From Naegleria gruberi (lineage: Eukaryota): DNA of 64,000 bases. The stretch is from assembly GCA_000004985.1 (NCBI GenBank), contig GG738855.1, one strand, 5' to 3'. The notes under the pieces were generated by a model. The model worked only from the letters and a program-made list of their open reading frames with translations, was not told where the DNA came from and did no database searches. The position numbers were made by a program, and so were the translations under genes. Below are positions 12,922 to 33,783 of the stretch, in pieces; the stretch's first letter is position 1, and the number at the start of each line of letters is the position of its first letter.

Positions 12922-13393
12922 CTGTGGTGATTTATTAAAAAAATTGAATTTCACTTTACCTCATTGATAGGATGAAAAATATTGACTAATAAAATTATTT
13001 TCAAATTCTAGCTTGGAATAAAAATGTTTTTCCCACTCTAGTTTTTTATTACAATACGCTATACATGTTCGTATACGTGAAAATTCTCTAGACTTGTCGT
13101 CAGTTTTTTAATTTACTTTTGAAAACACTGTAGTGTAACTAGTCTTTTATTTGTTGGAGTGAATTAATGAAAATTGAAATTAAAGTACATTAATACACAA
13201 TTTATATTAACGTTTAATATCTTATAAAATTGAATTCTTCTAAATCCTAATATTAAAAATTACGTTGTGGGCAACAACAAAAGCACATTTCATTCTTTTT
13301 CATGAAAGTTGTAATCTAAAGCTCCATACTATTCAACATGACAACTCCGAAATATCAATAATATAATCATCATTTAAAAAATCAAAAAAAAAA

Positions 13394-15453: not shown

Positions 15454-18400
15454 TTATTTCTTCTTGTTGAGTCTGGATAATTCCTTCTTGTAATTTTCAA
15501 CCTTGAGCTTTTCTTCATTGTAATTCTTTGTAATTTTGGCTTTGGAATCTTCAGCGAGGGCTAATTGCTTCTTTAACTTTTCAACTTCTGCCATTACTTG
15601 AGCTGCATTTCCACTCTTCAAAATGTTGAGCTGATCCATCAATTTGGAAATGTTTTCTCTCAAATCATTTACCTCAATATCTTTCTTGACAATTATTGTT
15701 TTCAATTCCTCAACTTCTTGAGATGATGTTTCCTTAACAATAATTGGTTCCACAACTGCCTTCTTAGATTCTTCCAGTTCAATATTCATCTTTTCCAAAA
15801 TTGAAACCTTAAGTGAGAGGTCTTGTACAACCTTCATTTGTTCATTGATTTCTTCCTTATCCTTTACAGATGAATTTTCGGCTGAGCTAACTTTGTCTGT
15901 CAAGTTCTTAATTGTTGCTTCCAAAGCATCAATCTTCTTCTTACTTTCAGTTCTTTCAGCATTTTGTTTTTCCTTAGCTTCCTTGAGAGCCTTTTCTTTG
16001 GCACTTTTCTCCTTGTCCAATTGTTGGTTGAGTGAGGATTGAGACTTTTCCAGAGATTCAATTCTTTTAGTAAATGAAGATACATCCTTTGAGTCTTTTG
16101 ATTTCGAGCAAACTAGATCGAAATCTGCTCTCAACTTTTCAAATTCTGATTGTCTCTTTGATAATTCGCTCATTAATTTTTCCACTCTATTATTCACTTC
16201 TGTCAATTCTGATGATTGTTTTTCTGCTTGTTGAGATTTTTGTTTGAGTTGATTTTCAATTTCTTCTCTTTCTGCCTGCATTTCCTTAATACGGGCTTCA
16301 AAAGATTCCTTGATTGAAGAAGTGTCTTGTTCGGACAATTGTTTTTCTAGAAGTTCAACCTTCGTTTGAGATTGTTCCCTTTCTGTTGCAGAAACTTCTT
16401 GCAACTCTTTAAGGGTTTGTTGAGCCTTTGTTAATTGCAATTGAATATCATCTCTTTCCTTTAAATTTTGTACAGTATCGGAAGCCTTTGATTGAATCAA
16501 TTCGAGTATCTTGGCGTCCTTTTCTTTTACAATCTTGGTTAATTCTTGATTGGAGTGTTTGAATTGCTCCATCATCTTTCTAACCTCATCAACTTCAGAC
16601 ATGGCAGTGTTCATAACAGTCTTCATTTGAGCCTGTTGTTCAGCCACCTTCTTGTGTTTTTCAATCTCTTCTTGGAAAGATTTGATTTGTTGTTTCAACT
16701 CAATATTCTCGGAAGCAACAACTTTGCTCTCGGAATCTTTGTTATCATCTTGTTTAAGAATTTCAATTTCTTCTTGGAGTGTTGTAATAGTGTTCTTGAG
16801 CTCTTGATTTTCAGTTGAAGCCTTCTCCGTTAATTCCTTTAATATGTTGCTTGTTTCTTGGAGAGAATGTTCTAATTTGGTGATCATCTCTGTAGATTTC
16901 TCCTTCTCCCTTGAAAGAGTGGTTAAGGTTTCATTCAACTTTTGCATTTCTCTATAATGTTCTTCTCCCTTTTCCTTGGCAGCAATCAATTCCTTTGTTA
17001 ATGTTGCAACAGTTTCACTTCCCAGAGCAACCTCTTTCTTTAATTTTTCAACTTCACTCATAGTGGAATTAAGAGCATCTTCCTTCTTTTTACGTTGATC
17101 ATTAATTGAAGAAATGGTTTCATCTCTTTTTTGTAAATCTGATTTGAGTGCTTCTACCGTTTGATTCAACTTTTGGATCTGTGATTCCTTTTCTTTGGTG
17201 GTTTTTTGAGTGGTTGTAAGTTTGTCAGTGCATTCTTTTAATTGCTTCTTTCCAGCATCAACATCTACTCTCATTTGATTAATTTCAAAGTTTCTTGTCT
17301 TGAGCTCTGACTTGAGCATTTTGATATTTTCAATATCGTTCTTGTGTTGCTCTCTTTCCTTTTGTAATGTTTCAATGACTTGCTCGTTGTTCTTCAACAC
17401 TTCATTACTTTCATAAATTATCCTTTCTTGTTCTTCCAATGTATTGGTTAATGACAACAATTGGTTCTTTAAACCTTCGGATTCTAAAACCAAACTTTCG
17501 ATAGCTTCTTCCTTTGCATGAATCAAATCCTTATTATCAGAAATTACCTTATCCTTACTCTCAGATTCCGTCTTTGTTTGTTGTAAAGCCTGAATGTTTT
17601 TAGCAATTATTTCCTCTTTTTCTGCAATCTCCTTTTCCAGTTCCTTGTTTCTTGTTTGGTTTGTTTCATCTTGGGAAGAAAGCTTGGTAACTTCAACAAG
17701 CAAGCATTCACTCTTTCTCTTTTCCTCATCCCTTTCATGCTTGATATGTTCAACCTCTTTGGAAATTTCCTTGAATTTGCGAGAGGTTTCTTCAATCTCC
17801 TTGTTCAAGTCGAGATTACAATTTCTGAGCAATTCATCTTTCTGTAACAACTCCTTCTTAGTGTCATCAAGTTGTTTCTTTAATTGTTCAACAACTTCAG
17901 TAGAAGGAGATGGAGAAGTAGCTGGAACAAATGATTGAATCTTTGCCAATAATTCTTCTTTTTCCTTCAAAAGTTTAGCAATTTCCTTGGCATCTCTTTG
18001 TTTGGCTTGAGTGAGTTTTTCAACTTCCTTAGTCTTCTCAAGAACGGATCTTTCCTTTGCGATAACGGTATCCTTCAATGTGGTAATTTCCTTAGTTTTA
18101 GAGGAGACTTGTTTTTCAAGGGAAGCAAATTTAGTCTCTGTTTCGGATTTGATATTTCTCAGCTTTTCAAGCTCCACCTTCATGTTTGATACTTCATTAA
18201 CAAACTGTTCTCTTTCTTCTTTGAGTTGTTTCTTGTCTTCCTTAATTATCTTTGATTCCTTCTTTTGGCTTGTAAGGGCATTGTTCAAATCAAGCTTTTC
18301 CTTCATCAAGGTAGCAATTCTGGAATCTTTCTCTGTTATTTCCTTTTGCAATGTTGCAATTTCTTCCTTTTGTTGATCTTTGATTTTCTCCATGTTGGAC

Positions 18401-18720
18401 AATTTAGATTGAATACTCTTGTTTTCCTTTTCCACAGCCTTTATGCGTTCTGCTTGTTCTTCAAGTTTTCTCTTTGAGGCTTCCTTTTCGGATTTCAGAC
18501 TGAAAACTACTCCCAAAAGAATAGCAATACAAGTAGTCAATATAATTGATTGGTATGAAAGACTACTACTAATAGTATCAAGCAGGAAATTACTACTTGG
18601 TGCACAATAGACCGAAGAAGAAAACAACATTGCTAGGGTCAATGATTTAAGACCCAAGTAGGAAGAATGGTTTACCAAGTTCATATTTTCTATATTGTTG
18701 TTGGTGTTTAAATTAAACAA
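15454..18720 (-). CDS. Giant coiled-coil protein (1088 aa) with N-terminal hydrophobic anchor (kinectin/golgin-like)
   Basis: One uninterrupted ORF. The N-terminus has hydrophobic stretches (LTLAMLFSSSVYC, IILTTCIAILLGVVF), followed by about 1000 aa of E/K/L/Q-rich heptad repeats. Many short antisense ORFs in the track are low-complexity artefacts of this gene. A palindromic TTTGGCGCCAAT element lies in its promoter (18831..18842). Confidence 0.7.
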   Translation of the reverse strand: MFNLNTNNNIENMNLVNHSSYLGLKSLTLAMLFSSSVYCAPSSNFLLDTISSSLSYQSIILTTCIAILLGVVFSLKSEKEASKRKLEEQAERIKAVEKENKSIQSKLSNMEKIKDQQKEEIATLQKEITEKDSRIATLMKEKLDLNNALTSQKKESKIIKEDKKQLKEEREQFVNEVSNMKVELEKLRNIKSETETKFASLEKQVSSKTKEITTLKDTVIAKERSVLEKTKEVEKLTQAKQRDAKEIAKLLKEKEELLAKIQSFVPATSPSPSTEVVEQLKKQLDDTKKELLQKDELLRNCNLDLNKEIEETSRKFKEISKEVEHIKHERDEEKRKSECLLVEVTKLSSQDETNQTRNKELEKEIAEKEEIIAKNIQALQQTKTESESKDKVISDNKDLIHAKEEAIESLVLESEGLKNQLLSLTNTLEEQERIIYESNEVLKNNEQVIETLQKEREQHKNDIENIKMLKSELKTRNFEINQMRVDVDAGKKQLKECTDKLTTTQKTTKEKESQIQKLNQTVEALKSDLQKRDETISSINDQRKKKEDALNSTMSEVEKLKKEVALGSETVATLTKELIAAKEKGEEHYREMQKLNETLTTLSREKEKSTEMITKLEHSLQETSNILKELTEKASTENQELKNTITTLQEEIEILKQDDNKDSESKVVASENIELKQQIKSFQEEIEKHKKVAEQQAQMKTVMNTAMSEVDEVRKMMEQFKHSNQELTKIVKEKDAKILELIQSKASDTVQNLKERDDIQLQLTKAQQTLKELQEVSATEREQSQTKVELLEKQLSEQDTSSIKESFEARIKEMQAEREEIENQLKQKSQQAEKQSSELTEVNNRVEKLMSELSKRQSEFEKLRADFDLVCSKSKDSKDVSSFTKRIESLEKSQSSLNQQLDKEKSAKEKALKEAKEKQNAERTESKKKIDALEATIKNLTDKVSSAENSSVKDKEEINEQMKVVQDLSLKVSILEKMNIELEESKKAVVEPIIVKETSSQEVEELKTIIVKKDIEVNDLRENISKLMDQLNILKSGNAAQVMAEVEKLKKQLALAEDSKAKITKNYNEEKLKVENYKKELSRLNKKK

Positions 18721-18830: not shown

Positions 18831-18842
18831 TTTGGCGCCAAT
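18831..18842. promoter_or_regulatory. Palindromic E2F-like element TTTGGCGCCAAT
   Basis: GC hexamer GGCGCC flanked by T3/A2 in an AT-rich intergenic region, 111 nt upstream of the coiled-coil gene start (18720, minus strand). Confidence 0.4.
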
Positions 18843-18850
18843 AGAACTCT

Positions 18851-20116
18851 TTATTGTCCATTGTTTGGGTGGTATGTAAACGACTTGTCATTCTCCAAAA
18901 GAAGATCTAAAAAGAGTGCATCCAATTCATCAGTGATAGCTTGGTCATGTTGAGCCCATCTATCTTTGGAATGTTTAACAAATAGTGAACTACAAACAGC
19001 ATTAACTCTATTCAATTCATAAACAATCCATGATTCAACTCGTTGTCCAAAATGTAATGAAGATAATGGAACATTTGGTACTTGTTGCCTTAACAAATAT
19101 AATTCCTCAATTTCTTTTTCAATTTCAATTGTTCTCAGTGCTTTAACAGTATCAAATAATCTTCTAAAATTCAAAATTATTATATTTTCTAATGGTTCAG
19201 CAACATCAGCGTGGTTAGTATTGATTAAATACTTCCATTCCAAAATATTTACACTCAATAGTGTTTGAATAATGAATAGAGTCTTTTTCACATCCAAAAC
19301 ATCTCGTTGTGATGTAGGTGGTTTGTCCTTGCTATCCAAAATATTGTGATAATTCTTTTTTGCAGTATTAAGTTTTGCATACGCCACTGTATAAGGACTT
19401 CCATGAATAATTTTAGCAGCTACATTCTTCAATCTGTCAATATTATTAGTTCGAGAAACGAGCACTCTTTCGGAGGCAAGCCATTCAAGAATTGAAGAAT
19501 TACCAGACCAAATGAATGAAAAAGATCTACGTAACTCCCATCCCAGTATATCAACGCATCGGATTGGATTCACATTACATTTAAAAATGTTTTGAATTGA
19601 TGTAGGAATTTTGCTCTTTTCTCCTCCTCTATAAGTTGCAAGCATATTCCTCAATTTTAAATAATCTCTCAATGATGATGAATACACAAAACGAATATCA
19701 AAATCGGAAAGTGATTCACAATGATATCCATATGAGTGACTTCCTGTCTCGACACAATATAAAATCTTTACATTGTTCTTTCTTTCATATTCTTGCAGTT
19801 TTTCTTGAATAGCCATTGGAATTTCCATAGGAACATAATTATAATATGAAGACATGGTAGATGGTAATTTTTCCAAACTTAAATTATTATTATTACTAAT
19901 GGGAGATGTATTATTTGTAATTGGGCTTGTATTCATAGTACTATTCGATGAAGATGATACTTGTTTTTTCGGATTATGAACAACTTTTCTTGAGTGTTGT
20001 TGTTGTTGTTGTTGTTGAGTAGAATGATGGTAAGCATATACTGGTAGAGTAGTCTTCATCATCATCATGGGATGAAGTGTCTTTCGGAAACGAAGAAGAT
20101 TACTCTGCATCATCAT
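18851..20116 (-). CDS. Pol-beta-superfamily nucleotidyltransferase-like protein (GS-x9-SDxD motif; possibly PF10127/RlaP-like)
   Basis: ILYCVETGSHSYGYHCESLSDFDIRFVY matches the hG[GS]x9-13Dh[DE]h minimal NTase fold motif. A helical C-terminal domain of about 250 aa follows. The N-terminus has poly-M/poly-Q (MMMM, QQQQQQQ) and an S/N-rich linker. The true start may be an internal Met. Confidence 0.55.
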   Translation of the reverse strand: MMMQSNLLRFRKTLHPMMMMKTTLPVYAYHHSTQQQQQQQHSRKVVHNPKKQVSSSSNSTMNTSPITNNTSPISNNNNLSLEKLPSTMSSYYNYVPMEIPMAIQEKLQEYERKNNVKILYCVETGSHSYGYHCESLSDFDIRFVYSSSLRDYLKLRNMLATYRGGEKSKIPTSIQNIFKCNVNPIRCVDILGWELRRSFSFIWSGNSSILEWLASERVLVSRTNNIDRLKNVAAKIIHGSPYTVAYAKLNTAKKNYHNILDSKDKPPTSQRDVLDVKKTLFIIQTLLSVNILEWKYLINTNHADVAEPLENIIILNFRRLFDTVKALRTIEIEKEIEELYLLRQQVPNVPLSSLHFGQRVESWIVYELNRVNAVCSSLFVKHSKDRWAQHDQAITDELDALFLDLLLENDKSFTYHPNNGQ

Positions 20117-20341
20117 CAGTCCTATGGATTTAAAATATTTTCTTTTTAATTTTTATTGCAATATTTAAAAAATTCATTTTCTAATTTTTTCAAGTGGCAT
20201 GAAATCAATTTTTCTTTTAATTTGCTTATTCTTCAATTATTTTGAAAAAGACTCACAGTAGAGAATCAAAGAATAATAAGCTTTTTATTTTGATAATGGA
20301 CTTGTGAAATATCTAGTCACTTTCGAATAACATATAAAAAA

Positions 20342-21232
20342 ATGACAACTCCTGCTACTCCTCGAACAGCAGTGAACCAACCACATTATCGTTCAACGTC
20401 ACGTCTTCGTCAGAAGGAAGCCACTCCGATAGAATTTTATCAAACTCTCGATCTGATCAATTCCTTTACTATTCAGACAATTTCTCTGCTCAACCATTTT
20501 TCTCTCCAATGTGAAACTAAACTAAACCGTGTGGAACATGATTTACATCGTGTTGAAATTACACTCTCCCTCTTGGAAAGTAAATTAAAATCTGTTGATG
20601 GAATGGAAAGCAAAATGAAAGAATTCGAATCTTCATCCACCACTGTCTCTAATCCAACAATAACAACAACAATGGAAACAACAACAACAAATTCATCAGG
20701 AGTTCCTCCTCCACCTTCATCAGCTTCTGGCTTTGTCCCTCCTCCACCTGGATCTTCTGGTTTTGTTCCTCCACCTCCAGGTTCGGCTGGTTTCGTCCCA
20801 CCTCCACCATCATCAGCTGGTTTTGTTCCTCCACCTCCTTCAATGTCTTCTTCAGGTAGTATGGGTATTCCACCTCCTCCAGTCATGATGATGAGTGGAA
20901 TGGTTCCTCCTCTCCCTCTAGCAACAACAAATAATTATTCGACAGCAACATCACCTGTAGAGAGTGAAGCTCATAATGATGATGCTGGTAATGTACTCGG
21001 AGAGAATATGTACACTTGTGAAACAGATCCAAGATTGGCCAGATATTTCAGATTATTCTACAAAGTGGGAGCTCCAAGACAACAACTTGAAATGGATATT
21101 AAGAGAGATTTAGGATTGACTGATTCCAGTTTTTTAGATACACCTACTGCTCCATCTCCATTAGGACCATATATTCCACCTCCAGCTGAAAGTGAGAGTG
21201 AAGAAGAGGAAGAAGAGGAAGAAGATAATTGA
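20342..21232 (+). CDS. CCDC53: WASH complex subunit 3 (CCDC53) homolog
   Basis: N-terminal coiled coil FYQTLDLINSFTIQTISLLNHFSLQCETKLNRVEHDLHRVEITLSLLESKLKSV parallels CCDC53 (FLNQFVVHTVQFLNRFSTVCEEKL...IETTLNILDAKLSS). Five tandem SGFVPPPPG repeats. C-terminal DPRLARYFRLFYKVGAPRQQLEMDIKRDLGLTDSSFLDTPTAP plus an acidic tail, as in CCDC53 (DPRYARYLKMVQVGVP...LLERPDAP). Confidence 0.8.
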   Translation: MTTPATPRTAVNQPHYRSTSRLRQKEATPIEFYQTLDLINSFTIQTISLLNHFSLQCETKLNRVEHDLHRVEITLSLLESKLKSVDGMESKMKEFESSSTTVSNPTITTTMETTTTNSSGVPPPPSSASGFVPPPPGSSGFVPPPPGSAGFVPPPPSSAGFVPPPPSMSSSGSMGIPPPPVMMMSGMVPPLPLATTNNYSTATSPVESEAHNDDAGNVLGENMYTCETDPRLARYFRLFYKVGAPRQQLEMDIKRDLGLTDSSFLDTPTAPSPLGPYIPPPAESESEEEEEEEEDN

Positions 21233-21299
21233 AATAATTGTAAATTTTGTAAATTTAAAGATAATTTTTGTAATGATTTAATAATATTTAATAAATAAT

Positions 21300-23309
21300 T
21301 TAGAGAGTCATTAATTGTTCTTCATTAATCTTGAATGAGTTAATGACAAATAATTTAGAATACAATTCTTCACAGACTTTTCCACATTCTTCTCCCATAG
21401 TCTTCTTAGCTTTGATGAGTTCTTGTTGGATTTGAGAAATCTTTTCATTAATAAAGCTCCAGAAATCCTTCTTGGTGACTTGTGCAGCTCTATTGAAAGA
21501 GGCAAGCATTTCAGTCAAATATTCATCAACAATGGTACAACTTTCAATCATCTTGTCACTATATTCAATATTGTCATCTGGAAGTTGGGATGGATATTCC
21601 TTTGATACAACTCTTGAATCTCTCAAAATGGTAGAGTTGGTCAAAATTTCCTTAATCAAGTTATGGAATGGAATGAGTTCCTTTTCAATAGAGATTAAAT
21701 CTTGTTCTTGTTCAACAGATTTAATGAGCCAAGTCTTAATGGAATGATAAATGGCTTCATTCAATGGGGTTAAACCTCTCAACATGAAAAAGTTAGTATC
21801 TCTCCAATCTGCGAAACTATTAACTGCCTTAGTTTGCTTCATCATGAGATTGATATGTTTCATGAGTGCCTTACTATCAGCCTTGACAAATTGAGCATCA
21901 TATGGTTCACCTCTGAATAAATGCAATTGTTCACTGCTTGTTATATTGGTAATGACTGGATTGTAGAATAATAAAAGTCCTCTGTCTTGAATTTCAGATT
22001 GTCTCTTACCATATAAAAAGTTATGGACAAGGATGGTACCAAAATTACCTTGTCCATTAATGTCTCTAGTGGCTTCAAAAGCTTTGATTGCTTCTCCTGA
22101 ACAGACATAGACAAGACCTGCAGAGATTTCTCTCAAAAGAGCAGATGTAACTTCAATATAATTGGAAATAATAGTTCTTGGGAATTCATGATCAGCTGGT
22201 CCCTTATGGAGGAGCATTAAATTCATTGGACGAACCTTCTTTGTTGGATTAGTTTGATTGAATAATTCCTTAAAATCACATTCCTCATAGAAGAGATAGG
22301 ATCTTGGGAATTGTCTAGTAGCCAACATGGATTCCTTATCACCATCAAATTCAGTAAATTCATATTGAGATTTGAGGAATTGTAAAATAGAGTCTTTGAG
22401 ATCTGAAACGAGGTGTGGAATTGTCAAACCCTTACGAATATATTCATTATTTTCATTCAGAATTTCTTCTTGTGTAGAGTCAGCAGTGATTCTAATTTGA
22501 ACCTTGTTATCTTCATCTTGTTGTCTTCCAATCTTATTGACACGAATAACATTAGCAATTCCATTCAATGAAGTTTCTGGTCTCTTCTTTGAAGGCAAAA
22601 ATCTCAATCTATTCACAACATATTCATCCATAACTTTGACTCTGTCAGCATTCAATGAAGTCTTCATTCCTAGAGACAATTCAAAGAATGATGGAAGATC
22701 TTGCTTACAACTATTTCTCCAAGAATCACCAAGAATTTTATCACACAATAAACCATTATATTCAGATGAGAGACAATTGAATTGAGCAACTTTGAGATTG
22801 ACAGCTTTGGATTCTCTTGTTGTGAGAAGAGTTTCATCTGGCAAATTAAAGTTCTTTCCATGTTTTGCTCTAACTTTTTCAATAGTATTAACAATTGAAT
22901 CAAGTAAACTCATTGCATATAAATTATATTCCCTAGCACAATAATCATTGGTATGGAAATAAACAAGTAAATCCATCTCTGACAAGACTTTGTGATAATA
23001 TGAGAGAGCATGATGATTCGGATCAATGAATATATTTTTCAATTCTTCTTCTTGATTTCCAGCAAGAGAAACAGCAGCAATTGAATCTTGTAATTGTATA
23101 AAACTACTATTTAAAGAGGAATCAATTTGAAAAACATCTCGGAGTGCAAAAGAGGGTGAAGTTTTGAATTGATTGTCATCGAGAGCATTTACTTGCAAAC
23201 AACAATAGGAAATTACAATCAAAAGTAAAAGTAATGATGATGCTGATGATTGTTTTATTCTCATCCATATGGATTTTGAAGAGGATGACTGCAATCGTTG
23301 TTGCAACAT
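21300..23309 (-). CDS. Secreted or lumenal hypothetical protein (669 aa) with N-terminal signal peptide
   Basis: MLQQRL...SSLLLLLIVISYCCLQVNA is a classic signal peptide. The mature region has scattered Cys and N-glycosylation sequons. No family confidently recognised. Confidence 0.55.
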   Translation of the reverse strand: MLQQRLQSSSSKSIWMRIKQSSASSLLLLLIVISYCCLQVNALDDNQFKTSPSFALRDVFQIDSSLNSSFIQLQDSIAAVSLAGNQEEELKNIFIDPNHHALSYYHKVLSEMDLLVYFHTNDYCAREYNLYAMSLLDSIVNTIEKVRAKHGKNFNLPDETLLTTRESKAVNLKVAQFNCLSSEYNGLLCDKILGDSWRNSCKQDLPSFFELSLGMKTSLNADRVKVMDEYVVNRLRFLPSKKRPETSLNGIANVIRVNKIGRQQDEDNKVQIRITADSTQEEILNENNEYIRKGLTIPHLVSDLKDSILQFLKSQYEFTEFDGDKESMLATRQFPRSYLFYEECDFKELFNQTNPTKKVRPMNLMLLHKGPADHEFPRTIISNYIEVTSALLREISAGLVYVCSGEAIKAFEATRDINGQGNFGTILVHNFLYGKRQSEIQDRGLLLFYNPVITNITSSEQLHLFRGEPYDAQFVKADSKALMKHINLMMKQTKAVNSFADWRDTNFFMLRGLTPLNEAIYHSIKTWLIKSVEQEQDLISIEKELIPFHNLIKEILTNSTILRDSRVVSKEYPSQLPDDNIEYSDKMIESCTIVDEYLTEMLASFNRAAQVTKKDFWSFINEKISQIQQELIKAKKTMGEECGKVCEELYSKLFVINSFKINEEQLMTL

Positions 23310-23491
23310 TTTTTCGGAATTTGTTTGAGTGTGGATAATTAGGAAACACGTTTTTTCATTCCTAAGATTCCGGAGATGAAGAACTCCGAAATATCCAATA
23401 GTTTAATATTATTAAAAATCATCATTACCCAATGCAATGCATAAGAGATTATAGATCATGTTTAAAAGATTAAAAACTTCAAATTCTATTA

Positions 23492-24993
23492 ATGCAAGAA
23501 TTATTTAATAAAAAAATGTTTAAACAATCATCGTTGAAATCCTTGTACATTTCATCTTGTTGGATGAAAATTCCGAAAGCCTTTGCAAATCACCATGCTC
23601 CAATAGTTACTTCAATCAATAACAATCGTGATTGTTTTACTACTAACGAATTTTCTCATCAATGGGAGAGAAGATTCTATGCAACCATCATGTAAGTCTT
23701 TTAATTTGGAATTTTCTCAAGTATTCATACAATTATTTAAATTATAATATTAATTGATATATTACTAATGTATGAAATTTCAATATAATTAGGAATAAGA
23801 GTGTTCAAGTGAGTAAACCAAAGGCAGAGGCCAAGAACAAATCAAACTTTGCCAAATCTCAAGAAAAAATCAAAAAACAAAAGGTACAACAAGTTCAACA
23901 AAGAAATGAAAAGGATTACATTTCGGATAAAACTCAATTGGAAAAAACACTCAAAATACAAGAATTAATTGGAAAATATGCTACTTTGAAAGGAAAGAGT
24001 GAATTATCGGAACAAGATGAAAAATTGCAAATTGAATTTTTAAGAAAAATAGTTCAATATCCTAATTTTATATTTATGAACATGTTGGAAGCTGGAAGCT
24101 CAATGGATCCTTCAATTTTAGGAAATGTAAATATATTCTCGAGTAAGCTTAAATATGATCAATATCTGGAAAGATTTGAGTCAAAATTACTCAAAAAGGA
24201 ATATGCAAGTGTAAAAGTGTCAAGTGCACCAAATATTGCTCAAATATTGGCTGCCACCTCATCCACATCAAGTATTGATGTCTTGACTGCCACCATTGAT
24301 GACACTATCAAGTTATCGCCACCGGAACTGAGAGAAATTATGGATTGGACTTCAATTGTTTGGTCAGAGCTGTTATATTCAGTACTGATAAAATCTATAA
24401 AGGAGCAAAATCAAACAGCTGGTGAGCTTAAAGATTTGGATATTCAATTGCAAAATGTTTCACATGATTTGAAACAAAATAAGGGCTCATACCTAGCCAT
24501 GCAAAATAAGTACCAAAAGCTCATTGATGAAAAAGTTAAACTCTTGCAATCTCAAGAATCTAAATCAGAGGGATACAAATCCAGACTCTATCTCACTGAA
24601 AAGATCTATGTTGCCCAGAGGGATAATGAAAGTTTGAGTGAGGTCGATAAATTTGCTGTCCCATCTCGAAAGGATCCATCTAAGAAGATTGTTCACATTT
24701 ATTCAGCTCCAGATGTAGCTGCATTGGAAATTCACAACTTTATGAAAACAGCCAAAGACAACTCTGTCAGTATTGCTGTTGTTTCTGGAAGTGAATTATT
24801 TGAATTTCTGGTGAGAAATAAGATTGATTTATTGAGGATTTCATTCTTGGGCAATTATGATGATCTTATCACTCATAAATTGAACTTGGAGGAAATTGAA
24901 GAAATTGCAGATATTGGTAGAAGGGAAGCACAAAAGAGACAAACAGATAATGAGAACAATCAACAAGAAGAAAAGGAACCAAAGCAAGAATAA
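23492..24993 (+). CDS. Hypothetical protein, 2 exons join(23492..23691,23793..24993); N-terminus resembles a mitochondrial presequence
   Basis: Exon 1 ends AT|GTAAGT (phase 2). The 101-nt intron ends aattAG. The downstream track ORF begins at a GTG and is in frame after splicing (…FYATIM-NKSVQVSKPKAEAK…). K/E-rich with coiled-coil segments. Confidence 0.5.
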
Positions 24994-24998
24994 AAAAA

Positions 24999-25781
24999 AT
25001 GATGAACAACCAAAACACTGACCCATCACTGCAACTTTGTGCAAACCATTTGTTTGACATGATAAATCGGAAGTTGAGTGAATTGAATGCATATGAAGAA
25101 AGATTAAAAAAGAAGGAATTGGAATTAGAAAGGAGAGAAAGGGATTTGGAAAAGTTAATATTATCAAACAATTCACAATCTTCTCCAATAATAAGCGAAA
25201 ATAATATTTTAAATAATTTATCATCATTGGATGCAACTATCACAACAAGGGTTTTTAATGTCACTGAATTTGATACGGAATATACTAGTAACAAATTGAA
25301 AGTACTAAATGACAATAGAACAGTTCAGAAAATTTATAATGATGATTGGCCATGTGCTTGTATGGGGCTGATTCCAGATCACATAATTGATTCTAATAAT
25401 TTTGACATTGTTAGATTTCAAACAAAATTCACCAATAATTGTTGGAATAATTTATTTGTTGGATATGCATTTAAGGATGATTTTTACTTGTCAGGAAAAA
25501 ACTATTCTGTCTGCTCCTATATGATCTGTTTGCATAAATTGGACAACGAAATCAAGATTTACAAATATTGGCCAGAAAATGAGTCGGGTTCTGAAATTGA
25601 AAATTACTATTTTGGAACTAACATTCAAACACTAGAAATGATTCATAACAAGGTAGAGGGTAAAATTTCGTTAATTATTAATGGTCAACCAAATACATTA
25701 TTCAAAGATGAATTGCTGAAATCAACTTTGCATCCTGCTTTTGAATTGAGTCAATATCAAGCTACTTGTGAGCTGATATAA
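24999..25781 (+). CDS. Coiled-coil + SPRY/B30.2-like domain protein
   Basis: N-terminal coiled coil (ERLKKKELELERRERDLEKL), then about 170 aa with an SPRY-like pattern (LNDNRTVQK..., WPCACMGLIP, NLFVGYAFKD, ISLIINGQP, FELSQY). Confidence 0.45.
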   Translation: MMNNQNTDPSLQLCANHLFDMINRKLSELNAYEERLKKKELELERRERDLEKLILSNNSQSSPIISENNILNNLSSLDATITTRVFNVTEFDTEYTSNKLKVLNDNRTVQKIYNDDWPCACMGLIPDHIIDSNNFDIVRFQTKFTNNCWNNLFVGYAFKDDFYLSGKNYSVCSYMICLHKLDNEIKIYKYWPENESGSEIENYYFGTNIQTLEMIHNKVEGKISLIINGQPNTLFKDELLKSTLHPAFELSQYQATCELI

Positions 25782-25844
25782 ATTTTTTCAGATTTGAGAA
25801 TAATCTTAATAATTTTTTGAAAAAGTCTCAATGGAGTAATTAAT

Positions 25845-27212
<1,368 letters not shown>

Positions 27213-27335
27213 TTATTAAGGATTGTATTTTGCAAGTTTCTCTATAATGGAGGACGAGCGATTTTTTTTAATTTTGTTTCTAAGAACAAGCAACCCTGTT
27301 ACGTTATTTAAACAAAACTACAACCTTTTGTAATA

Positions 27336-27350
27336 TTGTGGCGCCAAAAT
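27336..27350. promoter_or_regulatory. Palindromic E2F-like element TTGTGGCGCCAAAAT in alpha-tubulin promoter
   Basis: GGCGCC at 27340..27345 flanked by T-rich and A-rich runs, 134 nt upstream of the alpha-tubulin ATG. Two half-site variants follow: TTTGGCGGG (27363..27371) and TTTTGGCGG (27410..27418). Confidence 0.45.
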
Positions 27351-27362
27351 AAAATACAAAAA

Positions 27363-27371
27363 TTTGGCGGG
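27363..27371. promoter_or_regulatory. E2F-like half-palindrome TTTGGCGGG
   Basis: Matches the TTTSSCGC consensus in the same promoter as the 27336..27350 site. Confidence 0.3.
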
Positions 27372-27409
27372 TTCAGTACAATTCCTTATTAATAACATTT
27401 TTACAGTTA

Positions 27410-27418
27410 TTTTGGCGG
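27410..27418. promoter_or_regulatory. E2F-like element TTTTGGCGG
   Basis: Third TTTSSCG-type motif in the 27207..27500 intergenic region. Confidence 0.3.
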
Positions 27419-27501
27419 TAAAATATGTGAGTACTCATTTCTGTTGTAAACTTTAAAATTAATCCAAAAAATCTTTCCAATGTACTATTGTAATAAGTTA
27501 A

Positions 27502-29472
27502 CTATTTATTATTATTATTATTGTTATTGTTATTATTATTGGCATTATTCCTATTGTTTGGATTATTCATAAGGTTCATACCACCATTTACCATATACAT
27601 TGGTTGATTGAAAGGAAGATTTGGCATGTTTGGCATATTTGGCATGTTTGCCATGTTGAATGGCATAACAAAATTATATGGAAATGGCATTGGATTGGAC
27701 AAGATTAATCCTTGTGTATTTTGATAACCAGGTATTGTAGTTGGCACTGTTGGTGCTGTGGGAGGGTTCAAGTTTGGTGGTAATGCTTGAGATGGTTGTG
27801 GTTGTGTTGGTGGTGGCTTTTCTGAACATTTTTCAATCAGTTCAGTACCTATTGGGAATGATACAAAAACAGGTTCAGAGGCAATGGTGTTGGCGGTGAT
27901 GGTTTCCTGTTCCTTTGTTTTATCAAAGTATATCTTCAAGTATTGATAAGGGAATAGTAATAGGGATGACTTGTCATCAATTGGAGCAGTAATGAAATAT
28001 TTCTTCTTGGCCATATTGTTCAATAGAGTTGGAATTTTAGTTGCCTGGGTTGACGGTGTTAATTTCCATAAATGAACTTTCATATCCTTCTTTACAAGAT
28101 TTGCAATTATACTAGTTTTAAGGGACATGAGATTCTTGGTAATCTTGATATCTTTTGGCCATTTACTGGAATCAACAACAATTTCACTTTTAGCATAACC
28201 TTCCAAATGTCCAATAATAGAGTTAGGAGAATCAATACTGAATGTTAATTTGTGAATTTGTACATGGTTAGGACCAATTGTGTAGTCATTAATAGTTTTG
28301 GCAGCAGTACTAGATGTAGAATTTCCACTAGGTGTGCTTCCTGTAGAATTTGGAGTTGAAGTAGTTCCAGATGTGGTTGAATTGGTAGGAGTACTTCCAT
28401 TTGTTGGAGTTGTGGTAGTTGATTGATTGTTGGGAGTGGTTACAGTGGTTGGAGGTGTGGTTGAGGTATTATTGGTTGCTGAGCTAACTGTAGTTGGTGC
28501 AGTACTTGGAGCCAGAAAGCTTGGTGGTGGAGTTGTGACAGTTGTAATGACAGGAGGAATTACAACACCTTTAGCAACACTGGCTTTTGGTGGCAACTTT
28601 GGAGTAACATCCTTTTCTGTTTTGATATGGGTTGTGTTGGAGGCATTTGTGTTGATGCTACTATTGTTGGTATTAGCGCTGGCATTACTGTTTGAATCAT
28701 CATTCTTTTCATTCTTGTCATTCTTCTCCAAAGGTTGCAGTTTGAGTTTGTCTTTTTCAACTCCTCTCAAATCTATCAAAAGACCATATTCTGTATTGGG
28801 ATAATGTAAATTCATAGCATCTAGAATGAGTCTCGATAATCCTTCACTAATACTGAAAGGATCTGTAGAATTACTTGTGTTAGAGGTAACCATTGATTGT
28901 GGATCTAGCTTGCAAGCCTCTGTTATTTTTTTCCATTTTCTTGAAATGCTAGGGGAGAGTATTGAGATAATAAGACCCTTCTTGACCATATCTTTTACAA
29001 TTTCCATTGCATTCTTTCCAACATACATTCCATTCAAAATGCAAGGGTGCTCTGATGGAGTGGATGAACAAATCATCACATACTTTAAAGCATCCTTGTC
29101 CCATTCCAAATCAGTGATTGAAGTTGCAAGAGCTTCACTGACACAACTATGGGCAATACCACCAGCATAGAATTTTTCCTTCAATCCTTCCAAAATTTGG
29201 TAAAATGTGGAATAATCTTTAATGAAAGGAATTACCTTTACCAAAAAATCACCATTTGGTGGATAATTTTGAAATAAAACAGCAGAAAATTCCGTATTCT
29301 TATTTCTCAAATACAACATGTAGGGCACAATGACTCTGTTTAAAAAGTAGGCAAAATATGTCTTCATTCCTGTTGTTGTGTCGATTAAAATACATATTTG
29401 TTTAGGTTGATTATCAGATGGGCCATGTGCAGAAGATGATTTGGGAATTGAACCCGATCTATTACTTAGCAT
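27502..29472 (-). CDS. MED25: Mediator complex subunit 25-like (N-terminal vWA, central S/T/P-rich linker, ACID/PTOV-like domain, N-rich tail)
   Basis: N-terminal ICILIDTTTGM...YVMICSSTPSEHP...GLIISILSPSISRKW parallels the MED25 vWA domain (VCLLICNSPPY...GIHFSIVSPRKLP). A linker of about 150 aa is T/S/P/N-rich. A folded region follows (HVQIHKLTFS..., KVHLWKLTP, LLLFPYQYLKIYF). The protein ends in a proline-rich region and a run of 12 Asn. Confidence 0.6.
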   Translation of the reverse strand: MLSNRSGSIPKSSSAHGPSDNQPKQICILIDTTTGMKTYFAYFLNRVIVPYMLYLRNKNTEFSAVLFQNYPPNGDFLVKVIPFIKDYSTFYQILEGLKEKFYAGGIAHSCVSEALATSITDLEWDKDALKYVMICSSTPSEHPCILNGMYVGKNAMEIVKDMVKKGLIISILSPSISRKWKKITEACKLDPQSMVTSNTSNSTDPFSISEGLSRLILDAMNLHYPNTEYGLLIDLRGVEKDKLKLQPLEKNDKNEKNDDSNSNASANTNNSSINTNASNTTHIKTEKDVTPKLPPKASVAKGVVIPPVITTVTTPPPSFLAPSTAPTTVSSATNNTSTTPPTTVTTPNNQSTTTTPTNGSTPTNSTTSGTTSTPNSTGSTPSGNSTSSTAAKTINDYTIGPNHVQIHKLTFSIDSPNSIIGHLEGYAKSEIVVDSSKWPKDIKITKNLMSLKTSIIANLVKKDMKVHLWKLTPSTQATKIPTLLNNMAKKKYFITAPIDDKSSLLLFPYQYLKIYFDKTKEQETITANTIASEPVFVSFPIGTELIEKCSEKPPPTQPQPSQALPPNLNPPTAPTVPTTIPGYQNTQGLILSNPMPFPYNFVMPFNMANMPNMPNMPNLPFNQPMYMVNGGMNLMNNPNNRNNANNNNNNNNNNNK

Positions 29473-29598
29473 GTTATTGTGTTGTTATGATGAGAAGAAA
29501 AAATTATTCTTCTTTCTGCTCCGATTCGTGATTAAAAAAAATATCCAACAACAAGGATGTAATAATTTAAATTAGTTAATTTTTTTTGAATGTTATTT

Positions 29599-30378
29599 TT
29601 AATTTTGGTGCAAAACACTTGAGGCTTTGAGCAATTCATTCAACTTTTCTTCATCGTCCTCCTCTTCTTGTCTTCTTCGAGCTTGTTCTTCCTTCTTATT
29701 CTTTTGAGTTTCTTCCCAAACAGCTGCCCACATTTCCATACACTTACTGTGATAAAATAGTTGAGAATGAACAAACTCTTCAAATACTGTCCTCAAATCT
29801 CCAAGTCCTTCGTAGAGCTTTTTTTTCAATCCTCTATTTTCTCTAAGTTCTCTAATTTGATCATCTACAGATGTTGGCACCTTTCTTCTCTTTTTAATAT
29901 TCTTTTTTTGAGTTTTCACATATTCTGTATTGAAATCTCTTATGAGCTTCCATGTTTTTGAGAAACTCTCTATATCATTCGATTGTAATCTGTCAATTCG
30001 TTCTTGAAGAATAACATTTTGATTATTTGTATAAATGAATCCTTGGTGAAGAATAGCAAGAAATGTTTGTAAATCCTTATGATCCTTAACGTCAAGAGTT
30101 GATATTTTTTCATCGAGTGGGAGAAGAGACTTGTTGACAGTTTGTAAGCTCTTCTCATATTCTCTCAACTGAAATTTAAAAAAGTCAGCAAAGTCTAGCA
30201 CCTTCGTTCCTCTCTCCAGAGACTGTGAGGCGTAAAAGAGCATTGAATCGGAAGAGTTGGGATTAAGTGATGTTCCTAACGATTGTTGAAGTTGTTTTAG
30301 AGAATCATCAGAAGATCCTTGTGTTGGCATTCCACTAAGAGGAGATATTGGTGTTTTTGGTGTTGTTGTTCCTAACAT
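29599..30378 (-). CDS. Hypothetical helical/coiled-coil protein (259 aa)
   Basis: Intronless ORF with a K/E/R-rich C-terminal tail. Two palindromic TTGGCGCCAA elements lie 60-100 nt upstream of its ATG. No family recognised. Confidence 0.5.
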   Translation of the reverse strand: MLGTTTPKTPISPLSGMPTQGSSDDSLKQLQQSLGTSLNPNSSDSMLFYASQSLERGTKVLDFADFFKFQLREYEKSLQTVNKSLLPLDEKISTLDVKDHKDLQTFLAILHQGFIYTNNQNVILQERIDRLQSNDIESFSKTWKLIRDFNTEYVKTQKKNIKKRRKVPTSVDDQIRELRENRGLKKKLYEGLGDLRTVFEEFVHSQLFYHSKCMEMWAAVWEETQKNKKEEQARRRQEEEDDEEKLNELLKASSVLHQN

Positions 30379-30437
30379 TTTATGTACAATAAATAATAAT
30401 AAGGGAGTTGGTTCTTTTTTTTTAAAAAATGTAACAC

Positions 30438-30450
30438 TGTTGGCGCCAAT
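30438..30450. promoter_or_regulatory. Palindromic E2F-like element GTTGGCGCCAATA
   Basis: GGCGCC at 30442..30447, about 60 nt upstream of the ATG at 30378 (minus-strand gene). Confidence 0.4.
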
Positions 30451-30462
30451 AATTATGTATAA

Positions 30463-30477
30463 TTTGGCGCCAAATTT
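30463..30477. promoter_or_regulatory. Palindromic E2F-like element TTTGGCGCCAAATTT
   Basis: Perfect 12-nt palindrome TTTGGCGCCAAA centred on GGCGCC (30466..30471). Second copy in the same promoter, 24 nt from the first. Confidence 0.45.
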
Positions 30478-30599
30478 ACATCTTATTTGAATAATAGAAA
30501 CGAGTGTTCACTACAACATTAACTCTGTTAATGTCAACAGTTAAATCAATAAGAATTGCATCTCAGTTGATTTGTAAATTTCAATTTAAGTTAAAGAAT

Positions 30600-30676
30600 G
30601 GCTACGGCCATATCACGATGAATGCACCTCATCCCGATTTGAGACAACTTGGGAACCTGTGGTGCTGTAGTCTTTT
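30600..30676 (+). pseudogene. Truncated 5S rRNA gene copy (about 77 nt; internal 45 nt missing)
   Basis: GGCTACGGCCATATCACGATGAATGCACCTCATCCCG|ATTTGAG|ACAACTTGGGAACCTGTGGTGCTGTAGTCTTTT. Apart from 2 substitutions, the 5' 37 nt and 3' 33 nt are identical to the 7081 gene. It lacks TCCG and AAGTTAAGCATCGTCGAGCCACATCAGTACTGAGGTTGGAG, which is the box C region of the internal Pol III promoter. It still ends in a T run. Confidence 0.75.
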
Positions 30677-30777
30677 ATCATAATCATCTCTAATATGACT
30701 GATTAAGGTCAACAGTAAGCTAAGTGCAATTCGTTTATTTTCCTATTAACATAGTGAAAGTCCTATTAGGTTGGATT

Positions 30778-32145
30778 TTAAAGACCAGTCGGATAGGTTT
30801 CTTCAAGTCGCTTTTTAGCCCATTGATGTTGCATATCTATTGGATGGACTGCAGTGGTGGTGTTGAAATGAATAAGGGCATCAAATTGCTTTGCGACCTT
30901 TGCTTCAAAGTAATGAGATTGTCTCTCAGTTTTCGGTCTGTAAATAACACCAATAGCTCTTTCTAGTCTCTCCTTTTCTAATTCCCTTCTCAAAGTTGCA
31001 TTAGTTTCAACACTTGGATCCTTGCTTTTAAATAATAGCATGTAGTCTTTGGTCTTTTGACCGATTGTTGCATCATGAAGCAATTCTTCAATTGAATCCT
31101 TCATACCAGGGTTGACACGTTTATATTCAGGATCTTGATTCCATTTATCAGCAGCTGTTACACTTCCATTAAATGTGGAAAACCCAACAATGTAGACATC
31201 ATCTGGAAAGTTTTCTCTGCACTTTCTTCCAATGTTAATTTCATGGCCCTTATCATAGATACTATCTGTTTGTGAGGCATCTCCAACATGAGAATTGTGA
31301 GCAAACACAATAACTTTGGCCTCTTTTCCATAGCTATTGGAGTAATATTTCATAATCTCAACCAGTGTCTCAAAGAAGTGCTCATCCCGAATATTCCAAC
31401 TTCCATCCACAAACATAACTCTATAATAATGCTCTGCATTCTTTACAACCATTGCATTTTGAATGGCATTGAAGAGATGGTCCTTTTCTTGTAATTCCTT
31501 TGTTTCTCTATTCTGCAAATCCAATAATACCTGCATTACCTTTTCTTGACATGATCCACCAATTACTTTTCTTATTGGCTCCTTCTTTTTGTAATTTTTC
31601 ATGCACTCATATTGCTCCCTCACATGTTTAGCACCTTCATGATCACCAATTGATTCGAAATATTCGAGAACGACCCTCATACTTCTGTCACTACTATACA
31701 AATCAAGACCGTACAATCCAACCATATCCTTCTCCTTATTGAATTGTGTATTATACTCCCTCAGCCACTCCACAAGATTGAGAGTGGGAACATTTCTCCA
31801 CATCCAAGTTGGGAATCGTTTAAATCCACTCAGTGAATCAACACCAGTGCAATCAATTTGGTGCTTGATAAATTCATTCACCCTAGAAGTATCGGGAAAG
31901 TCAGCCTCAAGGCAAATACAATTGAAACCCTTCTCTGATATTAGACGCTTTGTAATGGCTGCTCTGTGTTCGTAGAATTCATGTGTGCCATGAGATGCCT
32001 CCCCAATGAGTACTAATTTCGAATCACCAATGGCTTTCAAGAGTGAATCGTAGCAAGTCAAAGAAGATTCAGATTTGGAAAGATCTTTTGTGAGTGGAAT
32101 CCAATTTTCTCTAATGAGAGAAAGAAGGCCAGATTGTTTGTTCAT
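30778..32145 (-). CDS. Erythromycin-esterase-family (Ere/PF05139-like) protein
   Basis: Probable start is the Met at 32145 (aaaATGaacaaacaa); the track ORF starts 13 codons upstream. LVLIGEASHGTHEFYEHRAAITKRLISEKGFNCICLEADFPD matches the Ere family N-terminal signature (GExTHGT.EF...R..I...L.....F..v..Ead). Conserved His/Glu residues lie further on (FAHNSHVGD). Confidence 0.7.
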   Translation of the reverse strand: MNKQSGLLSLIRENWIPLTKDLSKSESSLTCYDSLLKAIGDSKLVLIGEASHGTHEFYEHRAAITKRLISEKGFNCICLEADFPDTSRVNEFIKHQIDCTGVDSLSGFKRFPTWMWRNVPTLNLVEWLREYNTQFNKEKDMVGLYGLDLYSSDRSMRVVLEYFESIGDHEGAKHVREQYECMKNYKKKEPIRKVIGGSCQEKVMQVLLDLQNRETKELQEKDHLFNAIQNAMVVKNAEHYYRVMFVDGSWNIRDEHFFETLVEIMKYYSNSYGKEAKVIVFAHNSHVGDASQTDSIYDKGHEINIGRKCRENFPDDVYIVGFSTFNGSVTAADKWNQDPEYKRVNPGMKDSIEELLHDATIGQKTKDYMLLFKSKDPSVETNATLRRELEKERLERAIGVIYRPKTERQSHYFEAKVAKQFDALIHFNTTTAVHPIDMQHQWAKKRLEETYPTGL

Positions 32146-32323
32146 TTTATTCTTGTTTTTGATTGTAAGTTTACAATAAAACAATGATGTGATTTTTTAG
32201 TTATTCACTTCTTTGTACAATTCCCTAAACCATTTTAAATTATCAACAAGCTAATTCATATATCCAAAATCTTGAGATATACCATCTGATAATTAGGTTG
32301 ATAAGTAACGTCCATTTACAATA

Positions 32324-32339
32324 TTTTGGCGCCATTTTT
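32324..32339. promoter_or_regulatory. E2F-like element TTTTGGCGCCATTTTT in divergent promoter
   Basis: GGCGCC at 32328..32333. It lies between the Ere-like gene (minus, start 32145) and the PP2A B'' gene (plus, start 32368), 35 nt upstream of the latter. Confidence 0.4.
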
Positions 32340-32367: not shown

Positions 32368-33783
32368 ATGCAATCACTCATAACAGACCTGAGAGGTTTC
32401 ATCAAGGAGAGAAAATCAACAGAGGTTCTTCCTGGTAAGTAAAACAACTGTTAGCTCTTATTGAGTATTTGAACAGATCCAACCGAAGTAGAATATGAAT
32501 CAATGATTAATATTGAACATGAAATTAATGAGCAAGTTGTACAACAAGATAAATCATACAAAATAATTCCAAGGTTCTTCTTTCCGAAGGGAGGTCCAAG
32601 TGACAAGGTCCAACAAGCCTTCTCTGAGGCCGTTAAGAGTCAATACCTCACCTTTTGTCAATCAAAACTTTTCACCTCTGAAGAATTGGATAAGGTGTGG
32701 GAGTTTCTATTGGAAAAAGATAAAACTCAAGAGGAAGGAAATGAAAAAATTAACTATACAGGATTTAAGGAAGTGAGAAATCAATTTCCTGAATTCAAAG
32801 CAAAAGAATATTTTAATCAGTCATTATTCTTAAGATTACCAAAAGATGATTTTGGAAGAATTAGTATACCAGTGTTATTTAATCATATATTGAGAAAAGC
32901 AGCACTAGTTCAAAATAGGATTGCATTGATGAAACACGACTCAGACAATGATGGATTTTTAACTGAAAAAGATTTGGAACGATATGTAGATAATTCAATA
33001 GATTATCTCACTGGTTTGCATACAAACCCAATTTTAAAAACAGATAAGAATTTCAGAAAGGTCTATATAGAAACAAGTGTGAGAAAGTTTTTATTTTTCC
33101 ATGCAAACAATAATGGAAAGATTTGCATTGAAGACTTTGTTGGAAGTAAAGAAATGGTTGAGTTTAATGAGCTACAAAATGATGATCTCTCCCAAGAAGA
33201 AGAAATGAACAATTGGTTTTCTATACCCTCTGTTAAGAGTGTCAATGATGCTTTTGTACAATTAGATTTTACAAGAAGTGGACTATTGAGTAAGAATGAG
33301 TTTTCCAAGTTTAACGCAAACTCCTTAACTTCTACTTTCATTAATAGAATGTTCCAAGAGTATGGTCTCAAGAATGGAAAACTTGATTACAAATCTTTTG
33401 TAGACTTCCTTTTAGCGTTTGAAAATAAGAAGACGATTCCGTCAATCAAGTACTTTTTCAAGATTTTAGATAATTCCAAGACTGGAATGATTACACCATT
33501 CGTAATTAATTATTATTTTAGAGATATGTTAAAGAAAATTCGTCAAAATGCAAAATCATCAACTCCTCAAAACTCTCTTGGAGGGGATGAGTTTGAAGAT
33601 CCAGTCAAGACAGCAGATATTGTTTTTGAAATATATTCAATGGTGAAACCAAGTAACAAGAAAGACATATTCCTTGATGATCTCATTAAGAGCTTGGAAG
33701 TTGGCTCCACAGTAATTGGTGTTCTTATAGATGTTCATGAATTTTGGAAATATGAGCAGAGAGAAGAGCAAGGAGGAAGTTAA
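32368..33783 (+). CDS. PPP2R3C: PP2A regulatory subunit B'' (PPP2R3C/G5PR/TON2-like, EF-hand), 2 exons join(32368..32434,32477..33783)
   Basis: Exon 1 (MQSLITDLRGFIKERKSTEVLP) ends G|GTAAGT. The 42-nt intron ends gaacAG. The protein aligns throughout with G5PR/TON2: IIPRFFFP, FGRISIPVLFNHILRKAALVQNRIAL, SVRKFLFFHANNNGKICIEDF, NWFSIPSV, DYKSFVDFLLAFENKKT, IKYFFKILD, VFEIYSMVKP and VIGVLIDVHEFWKYEQRE. Confidence 0.88.

Follow-up and report, generated by a model that had tools for sequence, protein, structure and literature searches.

The stretch of DNA analysed here, a 64-kb window of Naegleria gruberi contig GG738855.1 (64,000 nt; assembly GCA_000004985.1), contains nine short sites of the kind recognized by E2F-family transcription factors. 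These E2F-type sites are distributed over six promoter regions, all at a distance of 15–214 nt upstream of an ATG, and they mark about six of the 43 genes in the window. Five are palindromic, with the sequence TTGGCGCCAA, and four are asymmetric sites of the (T)TCCCGCCAAA type. The genes that they precede include a NEDD1 orthologue, a flagellar alpha-tubulin gene, a gamma-tubulin gene, and the gene for a regulatory subunit of protein phosphatase 2A (PP2A).

The asymmetric site TTTTGGCGGGAA (gene-sense TTCCCGCCAAAA; 2473–2484) lies 15–26 nt upstream of the NEDD1 ATG and matches TTCCCGCCAAA with no mismatch; the intergenic region in which it resides is common to NEDD1 and a divergent NARF-like gene. 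The NEDD1 orthologue (371–2458, minus strand) has three exons and encodes an N-terminal WD40 propeller and a C-terminal coiled coil, and phmmer aligns it with the NEDD1 chains of Xenopus (E = 1.8e-56) and human (E = 4.4e-56), with other WD40 proteins far behind. NEDD1 is a targeting factor of the gamma-tubulin ring complex (gamma-TuRC). A palindromic site, TTTGGCGCCAAT (18831–18842), is found directly after the stop codon of an RlaP-domain gene and 147–158 nt upstream of the ATG of a gene encoding a 1076-residue coiled-coil protein (15454–18684, minus strand), in which an N-terminal hydrophobic segment accompanies a long coiled coil and no Pfam family is recognized. This site reads GGCGCC-AAA-TTTGAA, and its TTTGAA resembles a cell cycle genes homology region (CHR), so that this site only is reminiscent of the tandem of a cell cycle-dependent element (CDE) and a CHR.

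The alpha-tubulin promoter carries three sites. The palindromic site TGTGGCGCCAAA (27337–27348) lies 131–142 nt upstream of the ATG and is followed by a conserved ATTACAA box, and beside it stand two half-sites of the TTTGGCGG type, namely AATTTGGCGGGT (gene-sense ACCCGCCAAATT; 27361–27372), 24 bp from the palindrome, and ATTTTGGCGGTA (gene-sense TACCGCCAAAAT; 27409–27420), a further 48 bp away. The gene itself (25845–27206, minus strand) is intronless, and its product is identical to TBA1_NAEGR (alpha-1/2/3), a flagellar alpha-tubulin. Its neighbour is N. gruberi Med25 (NAEGRDRAFT_78876), and further open reading frames (ORFs) of the window exactly match N. gruberi proteins.

Two palindromes are arranged in tandem upstream of NAEGRDRAFT_64736: GTTGGCGCCAAT (30439–30450), 61–72 nt upstream of the ATG, and the perfect palindrome TTTGGCGCCAAA (30463–30474), 85–96 nt upstream of the ATG and 24 bp from the first. 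The gene (29599–30378, minus strand) encodes an all-helical protein of 259 residues, whose sequence-level relatives are confined to Naegleria. The Pfam family FAM92 is matched weakly by one of four orthologues (E = 0.0011), and an independent profile match to CIBAR1 (8ceg_A; E = 0.018, likewise weak) is co-linear in helix 3, so the protein is possibly CIBAR/FAM92-like, a BAR-domain protein of the ciliary base. Foldseek matches of its low-confidence AlphaFold model (predicted local distance difference test score 55; four sequences) were to generic helical bundles and were disregarded.

As to spacing, the site starts in the alpha-tubulin promoter (27337, 27361, and 27409) are separated by steps of 24 and 48 bp, and those of the tandem pair (30439 and 30463) by exactly 24 bp, as in the alpha-tubulin array; the corresponding pair in a related Naegleria sp. 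(L008) is spaced by approximately 23 bp. Such regular spacing may reflect cooperative binding.

The palindromic site TTTGGCGCCATT (32325–32336) is located 32–43 nt upstream of the ATG of a PP2A regulatory subunit B'' gene and 180–191 nt from the ATG of a divergent gene of the erythromycin-esterase (Ere-like) family. The B'' gene (32368–33783, plus strand; exon 1, 32368–32434; exon 2, 32477–33783) encodes 457 residues, the closest named relative in animals being the gamma subunit (PPP2R3C/TON2-like). Finally, the canonical E2F site TTTCCCGCCCAA (46965–46976) lies 33–44 nt upstream of the ATG of gamma-tubulin (47009–48384, plus strand; exon 1, 47009–47073; exon 2, 47121–48384), in an intergenic region common to this gene and a divergent VASt-domain gene. 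The encoded protein is 97% identical to N. gruberi Q4VHC1.

The sites are strongly non-random in number. The hexamer GGCGCC occurs five times in the window (18834, 27340, 30442, 30466, and 32328), against a mean of 0.35 in dinucleotide-preserving shuffles, none of which reached five copies (0/100; maximum, two). Each of the five copies is part of the 8-bp palindrome TGGCGCCA and deviates from TTTGGCGCCAAA by 0–2 mismatches. Similarly, TTGGCGS was observed 12 times where 1.5 occurrences are expected, and exact TTTSSCGC six times where 1.2 are expected, neither count being reached in any of 100 shuffles. The motif TTCCCGCCAAA is found with at most one mismatch at 2475, 27411, and 46966; relaxed to two mismatches, it is uninformative (13 observed, 11.7 expected). 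A further word, TTGGAGGG, is not enriched in the window (three observed, 1.2 expected) and all its copies lie in coding DNA.

The sites are likewise restricted to promoters. When ORFs of at least 110 residues, which cover 79% of the window, are taken as coding, all five GGCGCC sites fall into the remaining 21%, and the chance of such an all-noncoding placement is 0.209^4 = 0.002 with the tandem pair taken as one. Among the k-mers of the 13.4 kb of non-coding sequence, an unbiased scan ranked GGCGCCA, GGCGCCAA, and TGGCGCCA at the top, trinucleotide repeats from unmasked exons aside. One TTGGCGG is found in coding sequence, within Med25 (27890). An alignment of 100-nt windows around the five GGCGCC sites revealed no shared flanks, and the sites are therefore independent of one another rather than copies of a repeat family. 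A dispersed repeat or transposon end was considered and rejected, as the similarity does not reach into the flanks. The gathering-threshold Rfam scan of the window reported one 5S gene and one tRNA, and nothing at the E2F-type sites.

Much of this had been anticipated in an earlier note made from the letters of the window. Its statements that GGCGCC is rare, is nevertheless present in at least five copies, was not noticed in coding sequence, and forms a palindromic E2F-type element are borne out by the figures above, and both half-sites that it placed at 27363 and 27410 are present (TTTGGCGGG and TTTGGCGGT). Its count of five promoters has to be corrected, since the five GGCGCC sites fall in four intergenic regions, and the two canonical E2F sites without GGCGCC (2473–2484 and 46965–46976) had been overlooked.

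The sites are also evolutionarily maintained. Orthologous loci were taken from N. fowleri, N. lovaniensis, Willaertia magna, and Naegleria sp. metagenome contigs (about 90 kb from relatives in addition to the 64 kb of the single N. gruberi window), in which the promoters cannot otherwise be aligned. Orthologous promoters from three to four heterolobosean genomes besides N. gruberi nonetheless contain E2F-like sites, and these lie at comparable distances from the ATG. The word TTSSCGS is found within 250 nt upstream of the ATG in seven of nine orthologous target promoters, compared with two of 28 control promoters of the same loci (Fisher p = 1.1e-4); when the looser core SSCGCS is also allowed, the numbers become nine of nine and three of 28. 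One of the two control matches belongs to a CEP295NL-like centriole gene of W. magna (L013:3021-3103), which has TTCCCGC 25–31 nt upstream of its ATG and is in keeping with the centriole theme.

Individual promoters illustrate this maintenance. The NAEGRDRAFT_64736 orthologue of the related Naegleria sp. (L008; 78% amino acid identity) is preceded by the pair TTGCGCCAAAA and GTTGGCGCCAAC, 23 bp apart where N. gruberi has 24 bp, while the orthologues of N. lovaniensis and N. fowleri have GTTGGCGGGAT and TTTCCCGC, respectively. The gamma-tubulin gene of N. fowleri is preceded by TATGGCGCCCAG and that of W. magna by TGCCGCCCAAAA, each located near -55. The PP2A B'' sites span -25 to -55 in the orthologues, with ACCGCCAAAA in N. 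lovaniensis (about -40), TAGCGCCAAAAA in an N. fowleri-like contig (about -25), and TTTTCCCGCCGAA in W. magna (about -50). In these species the site accompanies PP2A B'' although the gene upstream is a different one, so that it is to be assigned to PP2A B'' rather than to the Ere-like gene, with which the earlier note had described the 32328 site as shared. For NEDD1, the metagenome scan returned only distant WD40 proteins (27–45% identity).

The alpha-tubulin promoters have a composite architecture. An exact-protein look-up recovered an identical metagenome copy of alpha-tubulin (L001) and a second copy (L002), and the genes of N. fowleri, N. lovaniensis, and a further Naegleria contig carry CCCGCCAA(A) adjoining ATTACAA, the N. 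gruberi counterpart of which reads GGCGCCACAATATTACAA. In four Naegleria alpha-tubulin promoters (window 27207–27348; L003:2841-2870; L014:2790-2820; L015:2760-2785), an E2F-type site is followed within 2–5 nt by ATTACAA. The same four promoters share a strongly conserved A-run, GC, and TTCTTCATTATAGAGAA, approximately 35–60 nt upstream of the ATG, which is TATA/initiator-like.

The factors that could read such sites are present in this organism. N. gruberi E2F, DP, an E2F7/8-type protein (DEL), and Rb are listed in the source data of Medina et al. 2016 (PMC4862756); the genes lie outside the window, and the sequences NgruE2F, NgruDP, NgruDEL, and NgruRB were taken from the literature. Pfam recognizes E2F_TDP and E2F_CC-MB in NgruE2F, and E2F_TDP and DP in NgruDP. 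The DNA-binding domain of NgruE2F aligns to the E2F4 chain of the E2F4–DP2–DNA structure 1CF7 (E = 7e-25), and the 23 residues of its recognition helix are the same as in the human E2F4 of this structure. The winged-helix domain and the RRxYD DNA-contact helix are intact in both N. gruberi E2F and DP, and NgruE2F is most similar to E2F4/5. Its C-terminal GEGVSDLFL resembles the pocket-protein-binding motif of E2F1–5 and may be its counterpart.

The designation of the nine sites as E2F-type elements is well supported. The motif is identical to the consensus of animal and plant E2F/DP sites (TTTSSCGC; TTTGGCGCCAAA; Arabidopsis TTTCCCGCC and TTTGGCGGG) and to the E2F1 motif obtained by high-throughput systematic evolution of ligands by exponential enrichment (HT-SELEX), which is TTTGGCGCCAAA (PMC5449588). 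As in animals and plants, palindromic and asymmetric classes coexist, the sites are promoter-proximal and sometimes tandem, and E2F, DP, E2F7/8-like, and Rb proteins are present with a conserved DNA-reading helix. Unlike the animal and plant systems, the host is a heterolobosean (Discoba), a lineage without described E2F targets, and the genes served are not replication genes, at least two of them being induced at differentiation and not in the division cycle.

The two Naegleria classes, palindromic TTGGCGCC and TTTGGCGGGAA, are also the two classes found upstream of Cryptosporidium genes and in Arabidopsis. In Cryptosporidium parvum, the upstream E2F-like motifs are TGGCGCCA (DTTGSCGCCH) and TTTGGCGGGAAV (PMC3734150). 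Both organisms have AT-rich, compact protist genomes in which both motif classes are over-represented in short upstream regions, and in both the motifs were inferred from sequence, with E2F/DP genes present. The two differ in that the C. parvum motif occurs very broadly (in 161 expression clusters, with ribosomal and glycolytic genes among them; PMC3734150), whereas the Naegleria sites concern a small set with a cytoskeletal theme, and in that an Rb homologue is kept in Naegleria and not in C. parvum.

The genes preceded by the sites point to a common function. All three clear cases of microtubule genes in the window carry a site, compared with three of about 40 other genes (Fisher p = 0.0016). 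The flagellar alpha-tubulin, gamma-tubulin, NEDD1, PP2A B'', and CIBAR-like evidence together indicates a theme of microtubule organization, basal body, and flagellum, and the target set looks like one of microtubule-organising, basal-body, and flagellar genes rather than of S-phase or mitotic genes; microtubule organization, basal body, and flagellum make up the programme that is turned on as Naegleria leaves the growth cycle. Induction of the flagellate tubulins is rapid upon differentiation, and in mitosis they show no differential expression (PMC10802493). Gamma-tubulin is a single gene whose mRNA is induced at an early stage of differentiation and whose protein is reported to be missing from dividing amoebae (PMC4819266). 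This expression evidence, drawn from the text of the literature, covers alpha- and gamma-tubulin, two of the six target genes. PPP2R3C is a distal-centriole protein that works with CEP350 and FOP (PMC11014585). On balance, the nine sites are probably functional cis-elements of the E2F family, read by E2F–DP and/or DEL, that mainly serve microtubule-organising, basal-body, and flagellar genes; binding by E2F–DP or DEL, the direction of the regulation (repression or activation), and its timing are inferences from motif and protein sequences.

Several observations weigh against this assignment. The functional theme is built on few genes, and two of the assignments are weak, the CIBAR-like one (E = 0.001–0.02) and PPP2R3C, which is the nearest named match only. 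About 40% of Naegleria genes (6,389) change in differentiation (PMC10802493), so the label "differentiation-regulated" has a high base rate and is not strong evidence alone. In addition, the two gamma-tubulin orthologue sites match the consensus only loosely in the T-run, and the second alpha-tubulin copy (L002) has CCCTCCAAA and no CG-core site in its 182 available upstream bases.

The strongest competing explanation accepts the same E2F/DP sites and places them in a classical proliferation-linked (G1/S or mitotic) cell-cycle regulon, as the earlier note had proposed. E2F, DP, and Rb are indeed present in N. gruberi, E2F sites classically mark cell-cycle genes, and gamma-tubulin, NEDD1, and PP2A B'' have links to the cell cycle in animals. 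The CHR-like TTTGAA after the 18831 site is a further point in its favour, as the GGCGCC core, CAAA, and TTTGAA would correspond to the CDE, 4-nt spacer, and CHR of G2/M (DREAM) promoters; unlike in CDE/CHR promoters, this arrangement is found at one Naegleria site only, and TTTGAA is common in AT-rich DNA. Against a proliferation-linked regulon stand the expression of both tubulins described above and the flagellar identity of the alpha-tubulin isoform, together with the mode of Naegleria mitosis, which proceeds with separate tubulins and without centrioles, and no replication or mitotic gene of the window bears a site. A cell-cycle regulon is therefore considered unlikely, and the label "mitotic regulon" is probably wrong: the E2F-type sites of the earlier proposal stand, and the mitotic or cell-cycle gene set is not supported, given a flagellar alpha-tubulin and a differentiation-induced gamma-tubulin. 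NEDD1, PP2A B'', and the genes of unassigned function could still have a proliferation-linked role.

Less probable still is that the element is real and conserved and is read by a factor other than E2F/DP, such as a lineage-specific protein, NF-Y acting on CCAAT, or an NFI-like factor acting on TTGGC/GCCAA. CCAAT is present in the 18831, 30439, gamma-tubulin, and N. fowleri alpha-tubulin sites, and some orthologous promoters have the CG-less TTTGGAGGG/CCCTCCAAA, to which classical E2F binding is not expected. The invariant part of the sites is TGGCGCCA/CCGCCAA and not CCAAT, however, with CCAAA, CCACA, and CCATT in other sites; the palindromic and TTCCCGCCAAA-type sites are the two E2F classes of animals, plants, and Cryptosporidium, and the recognition helix of N. 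gruberi E2F is unchanged. An NF-Y CCAAT box was rejected as CCAAT occurs in only three of the nine window sites, and an NFI/CTF site as NFI half-sites need a 5-nt spacer where all five palindromes have 0 nt. In a small sample from a single 64-kb window, one might suspect that the sites cluster by chance or are a by-product without function, for instance the remnant of a repeat or a quirk of intergenic composition, but this is highly improbable when no shuffle reaches the observed counts, the flanks are unrelated, and the sites persist in otherwise unalignable orthologous promoters while being rare in controls.

The CG-less relative TTTGGAGGG (CCCTCCAAA) was observed in four copies in the non-gruberi loci, all in promoters orthologous to E2F-site promoters: twice at the second alpha-tubulin copy (L002:4-24), and once each at N. 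fowleri NAEGRDRAFT_64736/enkurin (L005:7865-7872) and W. magna gamma-tubulin (L010:3964-3971). The N. gruberi window shows no enrichment of this word, with three copies, all coding, against 1.2 expected. The word could be a degenerate site or the site of a second factor.

If the nine sites are E2F-family elements serving microtubule-organising, basal-body, and flagellar genes, a likely mechanism can be outlined for the setting in which Naegleria uses these genes. A burst of transcription allows Naegleria to assemble its centrioles and flagella de novo in an hour or less. E2F–DP would dock on the GCGC core via its RRxYD helices, and in growing amoebae the promoters would be kept off by the pocket protein NgruRB, sitting on the C-terminal motif of E2F; upon growth stop and flagellate differentiation, release or exchange of the Rb complex would then lead to the transcription burst. 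That an E2F4/5-like E2F–DP (or DEL) together with Rb switches on the de novo basal-body and flagellum programme at the amoeba-to-flagellate change is a tentative proposal, possible but less likely than not.

A parallel is offered by the multiciliated cells of vertebrates, where the genes for centriole biogenesis and for cilia are driven outside the division cycle by an E2F4/5-type factor that acts with MCIDAS/GEMC1. The Naegleria targets likewise include centriole and microtubule-organising-centre genes for de novo basal-body assembly; unlike in the vertebrate system, no geminin-family co-activator is known in Naegleria. The likeness, which derives from motif placement only, would be a resemblance in logic rather than demonstrated circuit homology. 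If the proposed switch is real, the coupling of E2F to centriole biogenesis, as in vertebrate E2F4/5–MCIDAS, would be an ancient eukaryotic link and not a vertebrate invention.

According to a 2025 review (PMC12183034), Naegleria has none of the transcription factors that are known to drive cilia genes in other organisms, RFX, FOXJ1, and XAP5 being absent, and the factors of its own cilia genes are therefore stated to be unknown. The analysis yields a short, conserved, and experimentally tractable element in the promoters of gamma-tubulin, NEDD1, flagellar alpha-tubulin, and a predicted centriolar PP2A subunit, and with it a candidate factor for Naegleria cilia genes whose DNA-reading helix is unchanged from that of human E2F4. 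A literature search found no report on E2F sites in Naegleria, and the sites extend the sequence-level evidence for E2F targets to Discoba.

The neighbourhood of NAEGRDRAFT_64736 shows several further features. In N. fowleri (L005:6781-8000) and N. lovaniensis (L007:6857-8000), its orthologue and a divergent enkurin (flagellar) gene share one E2F-site promoter of approximately 230–300 bp. The adjacency of NAEGRDRAFT_64736 and Med25 is kept across species, and alpha-tubulin follows Med25 in N. gruberi only. The Ere-like gene (30778–32145, minus strand) is full-length (Pfam E = 6e-110), an Ere-like gene in a eukaryote; it adjoins NAEGRDRAFT_64736 also in the related Naegleria sp. (L008) and may be an old bacterial acquisition.

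Among the RNA genes of the window, an intact dispersed 5S rRNA gene (7081–7199, plus strand; Rfam 98.8 bits) and a tRNA-Thr(CGU) gene (12851–12922, minus strand) lie amid protein-coding genes. An internally deleted 5S copy (30600–30676, plus strand), which ends in a T-run, is situated between the Ere-like gene and the tandem E2F pair. Over its first 36 and last 38 nt it is almost identical to the 7081–7199 gene, and approximately 45 internal nt are gone where the internal control region would lie. The orthologous spacer of the related Naegleria sp. (L008) lacks this copy, which was not reported by the gathering-threshold Rfam scan.

Downstream of Med25 in N. fowleri, a long intergenic region (L005:11584-13463) contains TTGGCG[CG] at 11599, 12562, and 13194 and one 85-residue gene call. 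N. lovaniensis has an RWP-RK gene at this place, and the N. fowleri region may hold an unannotated gene or a regulatory region.

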